Positions 9,567 through 46,900 of a DNA stretch of 64,000 nucleotides are shown here, one piece after another. Within the stretch, counting starts at the first letter, position 1. Each line of letters begins with the position of its first letter. The notes under the pieces were generated by a model. It did no database searches. It was not told the origin of the DNA and worked only from the letters and a program-made list of their open reading frames with translations. Location of the stretch: positions 71,905-135,904 of the forward strand of contig JAIEQG010000087.1 in the NCBI GenBank assembly GCA_019747905.1, in the 5' to 3' direction. The DNA is from Burkholderiales bacterium. GTDB taxonomy: Bacteria > Pseudomonadota > Gammaproteobacteria > Burkholderiales > Ga0077523. The translations under genes and the position numbers were made by a program.

Positions 9567-10925
9567 GTGAGAAACGCGCGTCTTCGCGAAAGGATCGGCT
9601 CGATCCTTTCGTCGCTGATCCTTGGGGCGCTGCTTGCCTTCATTGTCCACTACGCATACTGGGACACAGGGGCTTTCGGCGACGAAGGATCGTCGTGCAC
9701 GCTCGGGCAGGAGATCCTCCACGGCCACGTGCCGTATCGGGACTATTTCAACGAGAAGATGCCGCTCCAGTACGTCTGGACTGCGGCGGTGATGAGCGTG
9801 TCGACGACCGGGGTGGCCGGTGCCCGGATAGCTGCCGCATTGAGCCTCACGGGCGTGTTCGCACTTATCGTCCATGTCCTGCGATCCGGCGTTTCCGCGT
9901 GGAGCAAGTGGCCGTGGCTGGTGGTGGCCATTCTCGTCTGCGCCGGCATGTGGGGGTATAACAATACGGCCGAATCTAGCCTGGCTCTACTGTTCGGCGC
10001 GGCCGCCTTATTGATCTCGCGGCGAGACGGTCCGGTGGGTTACTCCGGTGCCGTCATGCTCGGCGCACTCCACGGTCTCGCGATCGGCTTTCGTATCACC
10101 AGTGTTGCGGCCGCAATTGTTGTGCTGGGGTCGCCGTGGATCGCGGGGCATCGAACGGCTTTCGCGATAGGTGTGTCCGGCGCGGTCGTCGGATGGACCG
10201 CGTTGCTGTCCGCGATCGGCGTGCAGCCGTCGGATCTCGTGGCGGCCATGTTCTTTCACCTGGGATCCGACGAGGTCGTCCACTACTTCAGAGGCATTGA
10301 GCCAGAGGAACGGATCTGGGCGCTGGCCTGGGTCGCAGCCGGAACGGGGGCCTTGGTCGCTTGCAGCGGTCGGTATCATGCTGCTTGGGCAGTCGCCTGG
10401 CTGCTCGCGCTGGCGATTCCGTTCTTCGCGAGGATGGATGCATTCCGGCTGTGGCCATCGACGGTCGCGGCGGCGGTGTTGCTCTTCCCTTGGCTGATGC
10501 GGGCGAGATTGGTGTTCGGTGCGATAGTGGCGTTCGGTGTCGCAACCCCCCTAATCTATTCTCTGAAAGCGCCCAGCACGTTCGATCACTACTCGGAGAT
10601 CACGACCTACGTGCGCAGCCGAACCGGGCCGCAGGACTCGATCTGGGTCGCCCCGTGGAGCCCCTATGTGTACTGCCTTACCGAACGGGAGACCGCGACC
10701 CGCTACTACTTCCTGCTCCCTTGGATCGCACAGGACACAGTCAAGGCAGAGATCCTGCACGACCTCGAACGTAACCGCCCGGCGCTCATCGTCGACGTTT
10801 CCCGCGGGCGACGTTCGCTCGCGACGGAGCTCCCCGGACTCCAGGAACTACTGGATGCGCGTTACGAGCCGCCCGTCCGGACGCCAAGGGCCGTCTACTA
10901 CCATCGCAGGCAGCATGATGGTTGA
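9567..10925 (+). CDS. Polytopic membrane protein, GT-C fold glycosyltransferase-like (ArnT/PMT_2-like)
   Basis: 452 aa with many predicted TM helices. The first loop has GDEGSSCTLGQEILHGHVPYRDYFNEKMPLQYVW, which fits the DE...G..PY.D.F..K.PL.Y.W pattern of family 39/83 lipid-linked sugar transferases. GTG start. Confidence 0.55.
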   Translation: MRNARLRERIGSILSSLILGALLAFIVHYAYWDTGAFGDEGSSCTLGQEILHGHVPYRDYFNEKMPLQYVWTAAVMSVSTTGVAGARIAAALSLTGVFALIVHVLRSGVSAWSKWPWLVVAILVCAGMWGYNNTAESSLALLFGAAALLISRRDGPVGYSGAVMLGALHGLAIGFRITSVAAAIVVLGSPWIAGHRTAFAIGVSGAVVGWTALLSAIGVQPSDLVAAMFFHLGSDEVVHYFRGIEPEERIWALAWVAAGTGALVACSGRYHAAWAVAWLLALAIPFFARMDAFRLWPSTVAAAVLLFPWLMRARLVFGAIVAFGVATPLIYSLKAPSTFDHYSEITTYVRSRTGPQDSIWVAPWSPYVYCLTERETATRYYFLLPWIAQDTVKAEILHDLERNRPALIVDVSRGRRSLATELPGLQELLDARYEPPVRTPRAVYYHRRQHDG

Positions 10926-10995
10926 AGGAGAGCGTCGCTTCGCCAATTGCTGAGGCCGCCCGTCGATGGTCCACGGTCACGGTACGATGTACCCC

Positions 10996-12012
10996 ATGCG
11001 AGTAATTCTGCGAGTGCTGGCTGCGCTGTTCGCCTTCGTCGTCCTGCCTTGCGAGGCTGCGCCGGAAAAGCCCCGGGTCGTCCTCGCCGTCGGCGGCAAG
11101 ACCACGCTCTACTACCTGCCGCTCGCGCTTGCCGACAGGCTCGGCTACTTCCGCGACGAAGGCCTCGAAGTCGAGATCAACGATTTCCCTGGCGGATCCA
11201 AGGCGCTGCAGGCGCTGATCGGCGGGAGCGCCGACGTGGTGTCCGGTGCCTTCGAACACACCATCACCATGCAGACTCTCGGCCAGAAGGTGCAGGCCTT
11301 CGTGCTGCAGAACACGAATCCCGGCATCTCGCTCGGCATCGCGCGGGCACAGGCCGCCAATTACTCGTGGCCCAAGGATCTGAAGGGGATGAAGATCGGC
11401 ATCAGCGCGCCGGGGTCGAGCACGCAGATGCTGGTGAACCACCTGCTCTCGTCGGTGGGACTCACGGCCGACGATGTCTCCTGGGTCGGCGTGGGAACGG
11501 GCAGCACCGCGGTCGCGGCGATGCGCACCGGTCGCATCGACGCGCTTTGCAGCGCCGAGCCCGTCATGTCGCTGCTCGAGCGCTCCGGCGATCTCAAGGT
11601 GGTGGTCGAGACCACCACCGACGCTGGTGTGCGGTCCGTGTTCGGCGGGCCGCTGCCGGCCGCGACACTGTACGCGAAGGCCGCGTTCATCCAGGCCAAT
11701 CCCGGCACCATTCAGGCGTTGACCAACGCCATGGTGCGCGCGCTCAAGTGGTTGCAGAAGGCCACGCCGGACGAAGTGGCCGACGCGGTGCCGCCCGAGT
11801 ATCTGCTCGGTGATCGCGCGCTCTATCTCGCCGCCTACGAGAAACTGCGCAACACCTACTCGAAGGATGGTCGTATTTCCAAGGTGCTGGTGAAGAACAG
11901 CTACGAAACGCTGCTCAAGCACAACACGGCGGTGCGGCGGGCGCCGGTGCTGTGGCTCGAGCAGACCCACACGAACGCGTTCGTGGAGCAGGCGCTGAAG
12001 AAGTTTCCGTGA
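10996..12012 (+). CDS. ABC transporter substrate-binding protein, NitT/TauT (NMT1/SsuA-like) family
   Basis: Signal peptide MRVILRVLAALFAFVVLPCEA (ATG 10996; the listed ORF starts at 10966). The mature part ...YYLPLALADRLGYFRDEGLEVEINDFPGGSKALQALIGGSADVV... is typical of sulfonate/nitrate/taurine-type binding proteins. It is followed by a cognate ATPase and permease. Confidence 0.75.
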   Translation: MRVILRVLAALFAFVVLPCEAAPEKPRVVLAVGGKTTLYYLPLALADRLGYFRDEGLEVEINDFPGGSKALQALIGGSADVVSGAFEHTITMQTLGQKVQAFVLQNTNPGISLGIARAQAANYSWPKDLKGMKIGISAPGSSTQMLVNHLLSSVGLTADDVSWVGVGTGSTAVAAMRTGRIDALCSAEPVMSLLERSGDLKVVVETTTDAGVRSVFGGPLPAATLYAKAAFIQANPGTIQALTNAMVRALKWLQKATPDEVADAVPPEYLLGDRALYLAAYEKLRNTYSKDGRISKVLVKNSYETLLKHNTAVRRAPVLWLEQTHTNAFVEQALKKFP

Positions 12013-13905: not shown

Positions 13906-16900
13906 ATGATCTGGCGATTCGACTCGATCCGTTCCCTCATGGCGCCAGTGGGTACCCGTCGGCGCAAGGGTCAGAAGGCGGGAGCCGCTTCCGCCGATGC
14001 CCCCAATCGAGACAGGAAGGCGCCACCGTTCCGCCGCCGGCCCCTGTTCGAGGCACTCGAGCAGCGGCTGCTCATGTCGGCCGACACCGTCCAGATCATC
14101 CAGGGCGGCACCCAGGTGGACGGCAACATCACCGCCGCGGGCGAGACCGACCGTTACTCGTTCACGCTCACCGAAGCGAAGCAGCTCTACTTCGATGCGC
14201 TGACCGACACGCCCTTCAACTGGTCGCTCGAGGGGCCTGCCGGCACGCTGGTGAATGCGCGCAGTTTCCAGGGCTCCGATGCCCAGGACCTCAGCACTTC
14301 GCCGGTCCTCGACTTGAAACCCGGCGACTACATGCTCAGCGTCGACGCCAACCTCGACGCCACCGGTGCCTATGGCTTCCGCCTGCTCGATCTGGGTCAG
14401 GCCGGCACACTGACGCCGAACATCACGGTGTCCGGGCAACTCGATCCCGGCCGCGAGACGGATGCCTATCGGTTCACCGTGCAGGAGGGCGAGCGCTTCT
14501 TCTTCGATTCGCGGTCGGTGTCGAACACCAATGGCCAATGGCGCCTCGTCGATCCGTTCGGCGACCAGGTGTTCGCGACCAATATCGGCACCGACATCGA
14601 GCCGCCGGTCCTGACCAAGCCGGGTACGTACACGCTGTTGCTCGAAGGGCGACGCACCCAGGCCACGCCGATCAACTACCAGTTCAACGTGCAGAAGGTG
14701 GTCGACGAGAACGCAGCGCTCACGCTCGGCGCCCTCGTGAACGGCAGCATCGCGCATGCGGGCCAGCAGGACTTCTATTCGTTCGCGCTCGCGCAGCGCT
14801 CGCGCGTGTATCTCGACTCGCTCACGAACACCGGGATCCACTGGACGCTGACCGGGCCCAGCGGCGTGATCGTCGATTCGCGTGGCCTCAGTTCCACGGA
14901 CTCGAGTACCGTCGGATCCAATCCGGTGCTCGATCTGGTGGCCGGGAGCTACACGCTCCGGCTCGATGCTGCCGGCGATGCGACCGGCGACTACGCATTC
15001 CGCGTGCTGAACCTCTCGGCGGCCCCGACGCTGGTGCCGCTGCCCAGCGGCTCCACCCCGACCACTGCGACTCTCAATCCGGGTGCGAGCACGCTCCTGT
15101 ACGGCATCGACGCAGCCGCCGGCGACCGTCTGTTCTTCGATCGCCAGAGCCAGAGCGGCGGTACCGTCCACTGGCGTCTGGTCGATCCCTACGGCGGCCT
15201 GCTCTTCTCCAGCAATTTTTCCACGGACGTCGGCAATCTCACCTTGACCGCCGCCGGGCGCTACACGCTGCTGATCGAAGGTCATCCGAGCAACGCCGTA
15301 CCGATCGATGTCGTCTTCAATGTCGAGCCGCGCGGGAACCTCGTCGCGGAACGCACCACCTCGTTCGGCGACGAATTCGACGGCACGCTGAGCAGCAACT
15401 GGCGGCTGGAAACGCCGCGCGATGGCCAGGCGTACCTCGGTACGCCGAACTATCGGTTCGAGACGCTCGATGGCGCCCAGGTGCTGCGTCTCGACAACGA
15501 TCTCAACAACTCTCAGCGTGTGGCCTTCGGTTCCACCAGCGTGTTGCCGTCCGCGGCGAGCTTCCGCTACGAACTGCGCTTCAACACGCTCACCCAGTCC
15601 TTCGCGACCGGGGTCGAAGGGCTGCTCGAATTCTGGTTGGTCGACGAGGCCGACCCGAGCCGGTTCATCGCGGCCGCGGTCTATGGCGGACCCACCGGGC
15701 TCGACCGGCGCCTGTTCTCCAACGCTCCGCAAGGCGGCGGCTTCGTGAATCAGACGCTCGCCTTCGCCGACAACACGTGGTACCGCGCCGTGATCGAAGG
15801 GTCGCCGACGCAGGCCATGAAGGTGTCGATCCTGAGCGACGCCGGCACGGAGCTCATGAGCCGGACCTTCACCGTCGGCACCGACCTCTTCGCGAACGGC
15901 TTCCGCGTGGGCTTCGGGCAGTCCACGTCATCGCCGAATCGACTCGCGCCGATGGACGTCGCGATCGACTACGCGCGCGTGACCGCCACGCCGCTTGCCA
16001 CGACACCGCTGGTGTTCGACACCCTCACCACAGGGACGCGTACCGTCGCCAACCAGCGCGACGTCTATACCTTCAGCGTCGCCGCCGACACGATCGTCTA
16101 TTTCGACACACGCACCGACACCGGTGCGATCAACTGGACTCTCAAGGGGCCGTCCGGGACGCTGGTCGCGAACCGTCCGCTCTCACAGTCCGACGCGCAG
16201 GACGGCCGACCGTTCTACCGGCTCGTGGCGGGCGAATACACGCTCACCTTCGCCGGCACCGGCACCGGCGCCTACACCTTCAAGCTCGGCAACGTGGCGA
16301 GCGGCACACCGATCACGCTCGGGACATCGGTCAGCGGTGTGTTGAGTCCCGGCAACGAAACCGACGTCTACCGCTTTGCTGCCAATGCCGGCGAACGCCT
16401 CTACGTCGACATGCAGACCGTGCAGAACGGCGACGGCTGGTGGCGGCTGCTCGATCCGAACGGCGACGAGGTATGGTCTGCCGGGATCAGCACCGACAGC
16501 GGCGTGCTGGCGATGCCGCACACGGGCACCTACACGCTGATGCTCGACGGCCGCCGTTACTACACGGTGGACAACGCGTACCGGTTCAACGTCTCCCGTG
16601 TCGTCGATACCACGCGGGCACTGGTCCCCGGTGAAAGCCAGGGTCTCGGACCCTACTGGTCGACGGGGCCGACCGGCAACGCGCTCGAGTTCGCAGATCT
16701 CGACTATGTCGAGGTGCCCCACGGCAGCGCCACCAATCTTGCGGGCAGCATGACGTTCGAGGCGCGCGTACGCATCGACAGCTTCGTCAACACGTGGACG
16801 CCGATCCTCTACAAGGGTGCCAACAGTCCCGGTACCGGCAATGAGTGGCAGTTGCGGACCTTCTCGCTGTACGTCAACAGCGATGGCCGACTGTCGATGA

Positions 16901-40900: not shown

Positions 40901-43900
40901 GCATCTACGTGATCGACATCGACCCGTCTTCGGAGACCTATAACCAGCAGATCGGCACTCTCACAATACGCTTGGGCAGCACCGATCTGGCGCCGCTCGG
41001 GTTGCGCGGCATGGTGATGTCCGGAGACGGACAGCTGCTGCTCGCCGCACCGGACAAGTGGGCACCCGGGCAGCTCGCCACGGGGACGCGGATCAAGCCC
41101 GGCAACCTCATCGTCGGCGACGTGCGCAACATGCGTGCGCAGCTCGCGGTGTCGTCCAACCTCAAGGTGGAACAGGTGCTCAACGTCGGGCCCGATCCCT
41201 ACGGCATCTCCACCACGTCCGACGCGAACCGCATCATCTTCACCAACAAGGGCTTCGATGGCGATGCCCAGCCGGGTGTGGGTCTCGCGCGCGCCGGCGG
41301 TATCGGACTGCTGACGCGCACGCCCGGCAGCCGGACCTGGAACACCCCGACCTACCTCGACATGACCCTGGGATCGGCAGTCGACGACCTCGATCTCAAC
41401 AGCGCCCAGGGCGTGATCGTTACGTCCGATCTCAAATATGCGTTCGTCACCGGGTTCAACACCTTCAAGCAGGGGGTGCCGTCGGCCGACCCCGACATCT
41501 CGCGGCGCAACCCCGCCGGCGGTAACGTCGGTGTCATCCGCGACCCGTTCAACCTGTTCCCCGCGATGTCCAAGAAGGGCCTGGTCGCCGTGACCCGGCA
41601 ACTGCCATGGTCCAGCCCGGACAACCTCGCGCTCTCGTCGGACGGCAAGGTGCTGTGGGTGGCCTATGCGGGCATCGGGCAGGTCGCCGGCTACAGCGTG
41701 GAGGCACTCATCAACGCCGTGGAGACGATGCTCGCCACGACGCCGCCCGGATGGCCGCAAAGCGATCCCAGATTCGGTCTCACGCTCAACTACTACAACG
41801 CAATCAACAATTTCATCTTCGACGCGAGCGGGCCGGTCTACGTCAGTACCAATCCCGGTGCCGGGCCGCCGCTGATCGATGCGGCCACCGGTGCCCAACT
41901 CGTGAACGGGTTCGGTGCGCCACTGTATCGAGCCCCGAGCGGTGAACTCTTGTTCGCACCGAACACGCTGATCGATCTCAAGGCCGACTTCCGCATGCCG
42001 ATCGGCGCCAGCACCACGGTGTTCTCGAACTTCGATCCGGCACGCGCGCCGCTCAACGGCGGCATCCTCGTTCGGGGGCTCGCGTCGCAGAACCAGGTGC
42101 TGACGCTCATCGGCCCCGATGCGAACGCACAGACGCCGGACAGCACGCCCAAGTTCGAGTGGAAGGTCAACTCGAACGACGTGGAGACCACGTTGTACGT
42201 GACGGCGTCGCGCGGCGGCGAAGGGCTGTTCCCGAAGCTGCTGCCGGACGGAACCGACGCGTATGCCCATCGCATCCTGACCAAGACGTTCGCCCCCGGG
42301 GCTGCCGGTGCGACCCAGTCGTTCGAGCTGCCGCGCGAACTCCAGTTGACCCAGGGCCAGACCTACTACTGGGCCGTCGAAGCGCGAGCCGGCGACGGAC
42401 GGGTCTATCGCGATTGGCGTTCGTTCAAGGTGGAAACCCCGACGACGCCGGGCGTGCCGCCCACGGGGTACAACGGCGTCGTGGTGCTGATCGACGGCTT
42501 CGAGCTGCCCTACACGTCACTAGAGCTGGAAGGGCGCGAGAAGGTCACCAACAACCGCATGCGCGATTTCGCCGATCGAATCGCGGGTGGCTACGGCGGG
42601 GTGATCCTCGAACAGAGCGACTCCGGCTGGGTGGTGCGCGGCGGTCCGGCGTCGGCCGCGGCGGATCCGTATCAGGCGGCACTCGGCGGGGCGGTCGTGC
42701 TGATGCCGAAGTGGGCGAAGGAAGTCGTCATGAACGACTCCGGCTTCGCCGAAGCCGCGGCCGATCAGATCTTCGCCGCCATCGCCACTCTCCTCAAGGA
42801 CCCGGTCCATGGCACGCAGTTCCGCGATGCCGCGTGGAATTTCGTCGGGTTCTCGCGCGGCGCCTCGGTGGCGTCCGAAGTGATCCAGCGCCTCGCCACC
42901 TTCTTCCCGGCGAGCGCGCCCGACGGTCTGCAGAACGTCCGTCTCACGACTCTCGACGCGGTGGATCCGCCCAACGTCGACATCGCCGCCACGCTGGCGC
43001 AGCTCTCCAGCACCGCGGCCGACGCGGGCCGCCTGTTCGACCGCTACGTGCAGGCGATCACCAGCTATCAGGTCGTCACCGGCGAGACCCACATCGACTA
43101 CAGCCGGCTGTTCGATCCCGACGTCCGCACCTGGTCGAACATCTACTTCCACGACAACTACTACGGCGGGCGGCCGGGGGGCGGGTCGATCCCGTCGTCC
43201 GATCTCGAACTGGATCTCACCGGGCGTGCCGGCTTCACCGGCGGCGAGATCTTCCCCGGCATGCCGCTCGCGAATGCGCGCACGCTGTCCTGGTACGTCG
43301 GCACTGCGTCGTTGTCGGCGCGGCAGGCGCCGTTCGTCGACAAGGCCGTGCCCACGGCCGATCGCATCTGGCGCTCGGTGGTGGATGTCGGCTACCAGCC
43401 CAAGACCTCGTGGCTGTCCGACACATCGCCCGACGGGCTCGCTTTCAACAGCAGGTTCGCGCCCTACTCGAACACTCCCTGGTATCGCGCGCGCGACAAC
43501 GAGGCCACCGGCAGTGTTCTCGGCCTGAGTTTCTCGGGCACCGTGCCGGTATGGAGCATCACCGATCCGATCGGGAACGGCACCTTCGATCCCTTGACCG
43601 ACACCGCGCCATGGGAAGGCATCGGACAGGGCTGGTTCTACTCGTACCTCGGCGGGGCGACGTTGATTCCGTTCCGTCAGTCCCCCAACTTCGAGCGCGA
43701 GCAACCGTTCCGCGACAACACCGAGTTCGGACGCGGCGACGGTGCGGTGCCTTCCATCTACAACGGCAACTTCCAGGCGTCGGCGCGACCGGTCGTCGGA
43801 CGGTTCGTGCCGACCGGGTCCTTAAGCGTGATCGAGCCGTGGCTCGAAGTGCCGGGGTGGTCCTTGCGCGGGAGCGACGGCGGCCGGCTGCAGGGGCTGC

Positions 43901-46900
43901 AACTCATCCCGACATACACCACGGCGCTTGCGGGCGGTCTGCGCGGGCAGTTGCTGAACGCGGCCACCGCGTCGGGTTTCAGCGTCGATCCCGGCCGCGA
44001 CGCCGGCCTCGCGTACGATGCCCTCCGACGTTTCGGTCAGTTCTACCTGACCGAATACGATTCGATCCTCCAGGGCGCCAATCTGGCCGGCGGGGCGTTC
44101 GGCCTGAGGGACATGGTGACGGCGATGGTGCCGGCCTTCAACCAATACCTGGCGAGCCTTGCGAGCCAGGGAGCGCGTCTGGCGGTGCTCGATGCGCTGA
44201 AGGTGTACGAACCCGACCTGACCGGGGTTGCCTCGGGAGGAGATGTGGCGACCAGGGCGGCCATGAAGCTGGCTCAGGAATACTTCGCCAACTGGTCGTT
44301 CCGTCTCGACAACGCGGCGCCGAGCGCGGGTACGGCGAAACTGCAGCACAACTGGATGTTCGTGCCGCCGTCCGTGTCCTATCTCACGTTCGCACTCGAT
44401 CCGGAGGGTGTCGCCACCGGCTCGCTCAACGTAACGATGGAAACGACGAGCGGCAGTGTCGTCACCCTTGGCACGATCAACCTGGACGCGCTGCCCGACG
44501 GGTTTACCACGCAACGGATCGCACTACCTTCTTCAGTCAAGGGGGAGGTGGTCAAGCTGACCTTCGAACTCGCGGCATCGGGGTCGACCAGCGTGCTGAT
44601 CGACGACATCAAGTTCGACGGTCTGCTGGTGAGCGATACCAGCGGGGCCGCGGGCGACAGCCAGGTACTGTTCCTCGACGATACGGATCCGAACGGCTCG
44701 GGAACGCCCGCGCCGGGGACCGACATCGTGTACGCGCCGAACAAGAACATCCACGAGATCACGATCACGAATCCGGGCACCGACAGCATCGTCGTGCGCG
44801 TGGCGGTCGAAGCGAACGACTTCCTCGTCGGTCTCGATGCCGGTGGGGTAGAGACGCTCTACAACGACGGGCAGGACCATAACCTCGGCGACACCATCAT
44901 CACCGGCGGGTCCAGTCTCACGCTGAAATTCAAGTCGGCGCTCGATCTGCAGGACCTGTTCGGGTCCGGGCGCGTCGACGTCAACACCTTCACCTACGAC
45001 CAGTGGCTGATGCAGGGGATCCTGAAGCTGTCGGTGCTGGACGCGGTCGGCGGCAACGAGCTCTCGGGCCAGGACGTCAGGCTGTACTACCTGGCCGACA
45101 TCGGCGACAGCGACGTGGATGACGGCGTGCTGGAGATTGCGCGCACGCGCGATGGCACGACAAGATCGTTGCAGATTCTCAACGACACGGACCTGGAGAT
45201 CGAAACGGCCGGTACGCTGCCGGCTCGCTTCCAGGTCACGACCGCGGGCGGGCCGGTATCCGAACTGCAGTTCACGGCAGTGGGGAACGACGGTAGCCCG
45301 GTGTCGGATACGCTCAAGATCAGATCGAACGACGCGGTGCTGGGTGAACTCAAGGTCCGTGGCCAATCGGTGCGACAGATTGGCATCCATGTGGATCTGG
45401 CTCAGTTCAAGAACTACTTCCGGAACTTCTACAACGCCCTCGTGGCGTACCAGACCAACCCCGGCACCTCGAACCTGACGGCGTTCGATCAGGTGCCGAC
45501 GGCTCTGATCGATCCGGACATGCCAGGGCTGGGTCCGCGGATCGATGGCTATCAGCCGTTCATCGACCGGATGTCCTTGGGTAACCTCGAGGCGAATCTG
45601 GATGCGCTGATCGCGGGATTGCGTTCGGCCATCGAAGACGTCTACGCCGGCTTCTACGGTTCGGCGCTAAATCTCGTCTTCACTTCGGGTGCATCCAACG
45701 TCGTCGTCAATGTCAGCGACGCCAGTTCGCCCCTGGGGTCCTCCCAACAGGATGTCGACTACAAGGAGATGTTCGGTGTCGACGGGTTCCTGGACGGCAC
45801 CCAGTTCACCAACCCGCCGGCGAGTCCGACCTGGACCGCTCGCCGGGACCTGACGCCGGCAGCGATCCGCTTCAGGGTGGATTCCACCCTGAACAACAAT
45901 CCCAGCGACAGCATGAATCTGTTCCCGGCGATGAACATCCTGACCATCTCCGCATCGATCCTGTCGACTTCGCTACCGACATCGGTCGGCACCGCGGAGA
46001 ACTATGGCCGATGGACCGGGTTCACGATCGCTCACGAGCTGGCGCATTCGCTGGGCCTGTTCGACGAGTACTACACTCCCAACAATACGGGCTTCCTGCC
46101 GATCGACGCCAAGCTCACGAGCTTTGCGAACCCCGTGCCCAACAGCGGTGCGCCAGACTACCGGTTCAGCACGAGCTTCATGAACGATTCGGCGCTCGCG
46201 CTCGACGCAGCGGGACGCATCCGAATCGACGTGGAGAAGTTCCACAAGGGCTTGTTCGCTCTGGCGCTCAACGACCAGGCTCTCGCGGACCAGTACTGGG
46301 GCTACGACAGCAACCAGGCCGCCATTGGCTTCAAGTTCGGCGACGACCTCGGGACGCTCCTGGCCGTCAACGCGTACAACTACCCAGGGAAGTTCGTCCC
46401 CAAGGACTCCGGGCTTCTGGACATGTCGGATGCATTCGTAGGGAACGCCGCGGCGGTTCAGCAAGTGTCGTCGCCACTGCTGACCATGCCGCCCTTGGCC
46501 GAATGGGCACTGCGCGGGGCGGCGCAGCAGCAAGGAGGCAGGTTCGACCTTGCCGAAGACGCTGCCTTGCTGACCCGCGCGGCACGTACGCTCGCTGTCC
46601 CGACTGCCGCGCGCACCCTTTCGTTCCAGATCCTCGATGCGGATTTCGACGCGATCGGCCGCGGGCCGCAGGATGCCTTCGAGGTGGCGCTGCTCGACCC
46701 GACGACGGGCGCGTCGCTGCTTGGCAGCATCGGGCTCACGCGCACCGATGCGCTGCTGAACATTCAGGCGGACGGTGCGCTCCGACGCGCCGCGGGCGTG
46801 AACCTGTCCGGCATTGCAGGCGATGTTTTCCCAGGCGATGTCACGTCTCCGATCGTCGTCACGATCGACCTGACAGGTCTCAATGTGTCGAACGGTGTCG

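Follow-up and report, generated by a model that had tools for sequence, protein, structure and literature searches.

A module near the distal fibre end of a giant Burkholderiales protein, positioned beside a lipase-like module, appears to be an active zinc endopeptidase, metzincin-like and of the Asp type, that belongs to a new family, a reading to which we assign a probability of about 0.6. Its zinc-site signature is invariant in relatives that have otherwise diverged extensively, and a comparable signature occupies the equivalent slot of paralogous giants within an unrelated module.

A conserved zincin signature within a giant protein

The module is encoded within a single open reading frame of the window, by which we mean the whole 64,000-nucleotide stretch of DNA that was analysed. 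The features first needed are as follows:

13906–49413, + strand: giant open reading frame of the window, 11,835 aa
45373–46545, + strand: zincin-like module, aa 10490–10880, with bounds taken from homology to the family profile
46033–46065, + strand: HELAHSLGLFD, aa 10710–10720, with H, E, H, G and D unchanged across all 12 sequences

We regard the 11,835-aa frame as a real gene because two further species of its genus have orthologues of similar length (11,885 and 11,881 aa). It is flanked by ordinary chromosomal genes (a TPR protein, an ABC transporter, hemA, prmC and AcrB/HlyD). Pfam and NCBIfam searches of the product identified an LEPR-XLL N-terminus, PPC, LamG, CARDB, He_PIG, Big_9/cadherin-like and PKD domains, an Rhs-repeat fragment and a C-terminal dockerin; the N-terminal match (window 14044–14085, aa 47–60) is to NCBIfam NF012209, the LEPR-8K / LEPR-XLL domain, at 23.6 bits relative to a cutoff of 17. 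The giant protein is very long, probably fibrous, and of a secreted or surface type.

The sequence WTGFTIAHELAHSLGLFDEYY spans nt 46012–46074 in frame with the giant ORF, the codon for H10710 beginning at nt 46033. A first-pass annotation of this DNA had reported HELAHSLGLFD at aa 10710–10720 (nt 46033–46065) as an extended zincin signature with Asp as the third ligand; the coordinates and residue numbers were correct on re-reading, and the signature is conserved across the family described below. The published metzincin motif is HExxHxxG/NxxH/D (PMC12237041). The HExxH core occurs only once in the 11,835-aa protein, at aa 10710, and His accounts for 0.46% of the residues. Given the composition of the whole protein, chance alone would yield 0.009 occurrences of HExxH and 7.7e-5 of HExxHxxGxx[HD]. 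All 11 relatives retain the HExxHxxGxxD signature unchanged although their identity to the window module is just 22–39%, so that it lies far beyond chance; a fortuitous motif is rejected on the low expectation combined with conservation.

Extent and distribution of the module family

The 11 relatives consist of five phmmer matches, a few genome loci and one protein from a metagenome-assembled genome (MAG), and they originate from Burkholderiales genomes, one Methylobacterium and metagenomes. The five phmmer matches, all of them contig-end fragments or short pieces, were obtained from a search of 1.84 billion representative proteins. Among 25 species of the genus, the module is present in three besides that of the window, and one of these three has two or more paralogues of it. 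One more copy, in a 10,624-aa frame, came from a sample of 400 phylum genomes, and none from a sample of 400 class genomes. The copy in Methylobacterium sp. 174MFSha1.1, located in a 10,320-aa frame, was one locus among the matches listed for a search with four sequences, and the copy in the Burkholderiales MAG belongs to a 5,527-aa partial protein annotated as 'tandem-95 repeat protein'. Every relative with a readable gene context is part of a giant frame (>10,000 aa on complete contigs), and in the homologues found the module is present once per giant protein and always in the same slot. No free-standing full-length module gene was seen among these relatives, and none of them carries a peptidase annotation.

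A protein search with the family alignment returned no homologues, candidates being swamped by motif words. The degenerate DNA pattern T..HExxHxxGLxD(E/D)Y was found in at least 120 metagenome stretches. None of 105 motif-bearing proteins, drawn from the metagenome stretches listed and from earlier motif-only loci, belongs to the module family; these proteins are M6-like, reprolysin-like, eCIS-core-associated or unclassified. Two metagenome proteins (L090 and L063), unrelated to the module, combine an N-terminal eCIS_core domain (DUF4157) with a C-terminal T.AHEFGHVxGLxDEY…IMS metzincin-like motif, and one of the two also contains an OmpA domain.

Conserved residues and predicted structure of the active site

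The family signature reads HExxHxxGLxD(E/D)Y, followed by a Met and then a helix. The corresponding features of the window are:

45991–46050, + strand: predicted active-site helix, aa 10696–10715 (AF2 helix 167–186, pLDDT 73–81)
46066–46071, + strand: E10721 and Y10722, the second and third residues of the D-E-Y triplet, the latter invariant and a candidate 'tyrosine switch'
46102–46161, + strand: window-specific insertion of ∼20 aa (27 aa relative to P0006) between the Asp and the Met-turn
46168–46188, + strand: STSFMND, candidate Met-turn; Met in 10 of 11 sequences, aligning with the Met of InhA (PDB 4yu5)
46237–46266, + strand: helix after the Met, FHKGLFALAL (AF2 helix 249–258, pLDDT ∼80), candidate metzincin C-terminal helix

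Residues H10710, E10711, H10714, G10717, L10718, D10720 and Y10722 are invariant in the 12 sequences, as are D10616, R10657 and G10701 upstream of the motif; E10721 is nearly invariant. Among the 11 sequences that extend far enough, ten have a Met 11–39 residues after the Asp, and the remaining one, a paralogue in G002, has Leu in its place. In the window this residue is M10759 (codon 46180–46182) within STSFMNDSA, aa 10755–10763. The STSFM segment had been named only tentatively in the first-pass annotation; its Met proves to be conserved to the extent given above, and in alignments it falls on the corresponding Met of InhA and on that of a metagenome M6 cluster. The helix that follows is also conserved, reading FHKGLFALALND in the window and LLALAFD in the family consensus. 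The window-specific insertion contains LTSFANP, a degenerate, Met-less copy of STSFMND, and is bracketed by a 16-nt direct repeat (46116–46131 and 46170–46185) whose copies are 81% identical and 54 nt (18 codons) apart; the repeat may reflect an old in-frame duplication, or chance.

AlphaFold2 (AF2) gave a model with a pLDDT of 60.9 and a pTM of 0.65 when supplied with the 11-sequence alignment, whereas prediction from the single sequence (pLDDT 32) was of no use. The first-pass annotation had called for a structure prediction. In the model, HExxH is carried by a helix that stops just before Gly10717, as in metzincins, and three confident helices follow the Met, but the region in which the upper-subdomain sheet is expected is poorly modelled and no structural neighbour of the model (pLDDT 61) was found.

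Together these features outline a possible mechanism. H10710 and H10714, on the active-site helix that ends at G10717, would serve as zinc ligands, and after the chain turns at G10717 the third ligand would be D10720 (roles by analogy with PMC12237041). E10711 would be the general base that polarises the catalytic water. A Tyr two residues past the third ligand can function as a 'tyrosine switch' (PMC12237041), and Y10722 of the D-E-Y triplet would occupy that role. M10759 within STSFM would form the Met-turn beneath the metal site, with the putative C-terminal helix coming next.

Relation to known peptidase families

At threshold, the module (aa ∼10490–10880) matches no Pfam, NCBIfam or PDB family. 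The best single Pfam match is to Peptidase_M64 (PF09471), which reached 21.7 bits relative to a gathering cutoff of 26 (E 1.3e-4, over 50 residues); with the window module itself the M64 match has an E of 0.025 and covers only the motif, and matches to Pfam M13 and DUF3810 are weaker and likewise motif-only. The best match to M6 (PF05547), at 13.9 bits relative to 22, is below threshold, as are those to the NCBIfam M6 domain TIGR03296 (15.6 bits relative to 110.8) and, weaker again, to metzin_BF0631. Pfam M7 gave no match in the module searches. A phmmer search of PDB sequences with the module returned only noise (a fibre protein, a decarboxylase). Family-profile searches of PDB sequences returned matches that were all sub-threshold, metzincins making up 43 of 46 in one search and nearly all of the 60 matches listed in another; these include adamalysins, ADAMTS-5, MMPs, InhA (4yu5), igalysins (3p1v and 4df9), an IgA protease and snapalysin. 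Database matches cover the motif and extend at most to the Met, and the N-terminal ∼200 residues upstream of the active-site helix resemble no known peptidase.

Asp is the third ligand in snapalysins, thuringilysins (M6) and igalysins (M64) (PMC12237041). The M6 family (PF05547, PDB 4yu5) shares with the module the HExxHxxGLxDEY spacing, the Asp ligand, the D-E-Y triplet and a conserved Met ∼20 residues downstream that aligns with the family Met, and in both cases a large catalytic domain is embedded within a multidomain secreted protein. The alignment with InhA 4yu5 runs from the motif through D-E-Y and places the InhA Met on the family Met. One metagenome cluster is M6 by Pfam (E 1e-12), and its hhalign alignment to the module family covers 57 columns that start at the motif, take in 'wSiM' and reach the helix after it; such comparisons are partly circular, the clusters having been chosen by motif, but the extension to the Met and helix is non-circular. 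Unlike M6, the module has an Asp-to-Met segment that ranges from 11 to 39 residues, occurs only internally in giants (>10,000 aa where complete), scores below threshold and has no detectable likeness upstream of the active-site helix.

The M64 IgAse likewise combines an Asp third ligand, D-E-Y, a Met-turn and a C-terminal helix within a catalytic domain of ∼270–310 residues, and M64 enzymes have one extra residue before the Gly (PMC12237041). The module resembles M64 (3p1v/4df9, PF09471) in its Asp ligand, D-E-Y, Met and C-terminal helix; however, it lacks the extra residue of the HExxHxxxGxxD form, so that the 3p1v alignment requires a one-residue gap, and it has none of the Cys residues that bind the structural zinc of M64. 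Snapalysin (M7, PDB 1c7k) has the HExxHxxGxxD motif, a Tyr two residues past the Asp and a Met shortly downstream, as does the module, but its match is limited to the 18-residue motif (E 0.08–0.5). Snapalysin is a free-standing enzyme of ∼130 aa.

As judged by sequence, the active site of the module is closest to that of M6 and then to that of M64, with snapalysin more remote, and assignment to either M6 or M64 fails their score thresholds. The snapalysin likeness proposed in the first-pass annotation therefore stands for the shared Asp ligand but not for nearest kinship: snapalysin was rejected as the nearest relative, the closest family being M6/thuringilysin, with the same spacing and D-E-Y, followed by M64/igalysin. 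We consider it probable that the module family constitutes a new family of Asp-metzincin-like peptidases.

The module lies in a hypervariable stretch

44653–46905, + strand: hypervariable stretch, aa ∼10250–11000, 17–60% identical to same-genus orthologues, with flanks at 80–98%

The three orthologous giants are 75–77% identical overall and 80–98% identical in aa 9400–10000 and 11000–11200. The zincin module is the most divergent part: aa ∼10450–10900 are only 17–45% identical between same-genus orthologues, the lowest of sixty 200-aa bins, as opposed to 75–98% elsewhere. The edges of the stretch are abrupt. Between the window and its G019 orthologue, identity drops at about aa 10250, from 94% to 50%, and is >80% again near aa 11000–11050. 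Both substitution rates are elevated within the stretch, dN being 0.4–0.9 compared with 0.05–0.17 in the flanks and dS 1.1–2.2, close to saturation, compared with 0.4–0.8. Omega is 0.19–0.28 in the catalytic core (aa 10701–10800) and 0.4–0.86 in the blocks on either side. Recombinational replacement and diversifying selection, alone or together, would fit the pattern of divergence, and a rapidly changing scaffold with fixed catalytic residues fits either a changing substrate or target or recombinational replacement of the stretch.

Divergence is also mosaic along the giant gene as a whole. Between the window and G019, dS is 0.38 in aa 8001–9400 and ∼0.8 in aa 1–4000, and the closest orthologue is not the same throughout the gene, a pattern suggestive of interspecies recombination inside it. 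Immediately flanking the zincin module are beta-rich domains (window 46546–47025 and 44296–45372) whose last residues read …LIDDIKFDG and …IIDDVRFLFDG. Homologues conserve both, P0001 the upstream and P0002 the downstream one, and neither has a Pfam or NCBIfam match.

A lipase-like partner, and a different zincin in the same slot of paralogous giants

42463–43305, + strand: lipase-like (GFSRG) module, aa 9520–9800, which in every carrier precedes the zincin module by ∼1,000–1,100 aa
G005:C26:66000–77000 (L145), aa ∼983: paralogue module
G003:C15:117300–128300 (L146), aa ∼958: paralogue module

The first-pass annotation had also proposed that the protein bears two different hydrolytic modules near its C-terminal end. 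The two-module cassette is real, as the lipase-like module accompanies the zincin module in every giant homologue, including the Methylobacterium and MAG proteins; in the window the zincin module lies ∼1,060 aa after it. In two orthologues the lipase-like module is 87–91% identical to that of the window, as compared with 37–38% for the zincin module. More distant lipase-like copies (36–45% identical) are found in every other zincin-carrying giant and in four same-genus giants that are without the zincin module.

These four giants, from other species (G005, G003, G012 and G022), have lipase-like modules 38–40% identical to that of the window and no copy of the zincin family; their open frames are 12,221–12,327 aa in three cases and 5,512 aa in G022. 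In G005 and G003, the two that were read (giants of ∼12,300 aa), the equivalent slot contains a different HExxHxxGLxD…M module, LLTVISHEMGHALGLAD…RLMT, with the pattern LLTV(I/L)(S/T)HE(M/L)GHALGL(A/D)D…(R/T)LMT. Like the zincin module, it is positioned after the lipase-like module and 100–160 aa before a conserved jelly-roll and cadherin block. It differs in having no sequence similarity beyond the motif and in being more compact, with only 13 residues from the Asp to the Met. Its likeness to matrixins (M10) is weak, at 19–20 bits relative to 24. The strongest argument that the catalytic site is functional comes from this comparison, because the signature has been kept in two unrelated scaffolds at one slot.

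Alternative explanations

The conserved residues could instead form a structural metal site, or belong to a non-proteolytic zincin-like hydrolase or to a dead relic in a non-protease fold. The predicted fold is without a structural neighbour, the N-terminal ∼200 aa are without similarity to any peptidase, and constraint is weaker in the module than anywhere else in the giant protein, all of which would suit such a view. A dead relic, however, would not be expected to retain the Glu, both His, the Gly, the Asp, the Tyr and the Met down to 22% identity, nor would the catalytic signature be kept again in the unrelated paralogous module. Because of this conservation pattern the non-catalytic explanation is disfavoured, and we consider it improbable. 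Self-cleaving zincin domains occur in some large secreted proteins, and the module might similarly be an autoprocessing or maturation protease that cuts the giant protein in cis or between neighbours and thereby releases or trims its distal part. Its confinement to giants, with one copy per protein in a constant slot and no free-standing full-length gene seen, agrees with this possibility, which we nevertheless judge unlikely: housekeeping self-cleavage does not predict hypervariability of the scaffold unless the cleavage site co-varies.

In a third proposal, the module is a variable, effector-like head that attacks proteins of a competitor or host, and recombination swaps the hypervariable stretch much as it does in polymorphic toxin systems. 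The sharp shifts in identity at both edges, the joint rise of dN and dS between them, the different zincin in the same slot of paralogues and the Rhs-repeat fragment upstream are all in keeping with such a head. Yet the stretch is internal, being followed by ∼900 aa in which cadherin, PKD and dockerin domains are conserved; no immunity-like gene is evident in the flanks (hemA, prmC, AcrB, transporter); and no matches to toxin metallopeptidase families were found. An effector head seems very improbable.

Discussion

If the module is a zinc endopeptidase as we favour, its likeliest action would be to cut extracellular proteins (environmental, competitor or host) in trans, though we put this at somewhat below even odds, and cutting of the giant protein itself is less likely; an external, changing target is favoured because of the hypervariability. 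More speculatively, the ∼750-aa stretch could be an exchangeable 'protease slot' that has been replaced or diversified between species and filled by unrelated zincins in paralogues, with the zinc site and the lipase-like pairing maintained throughout. Such a slot would amount to a warhead of variable specificity on a fibre of >10,000 aa, its occupant in the window founding a new metzincin family whose upper subdomain would differ from all those solved; we offer this only as a doubtful extension.

The chemistry and the motif class are already known. Within the reach of our searches, no description exists of the family, of its hypervariability, of its confinement to giant proteins or of the way it pairs with the lipase-like module; a search of the literature for LEPR-XLL or tandem-95 giants containing a metzincin found nothing relevant. 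If active, the module would represent a new family of peptidases, one overlooked by present annotation, and it would give an enzymatic function to giant bacterial proteins that are otherwise adhesin-like. An invariant catalytic site within a scaffold that diverges several-fold faster than the remaining protein would provide a natural setting in which to study the evolution, or the exchange, of protease specificity, and the constant pairing of the lipase-like and zincin modules offers a concrete handle on the role of these enormous proteins.
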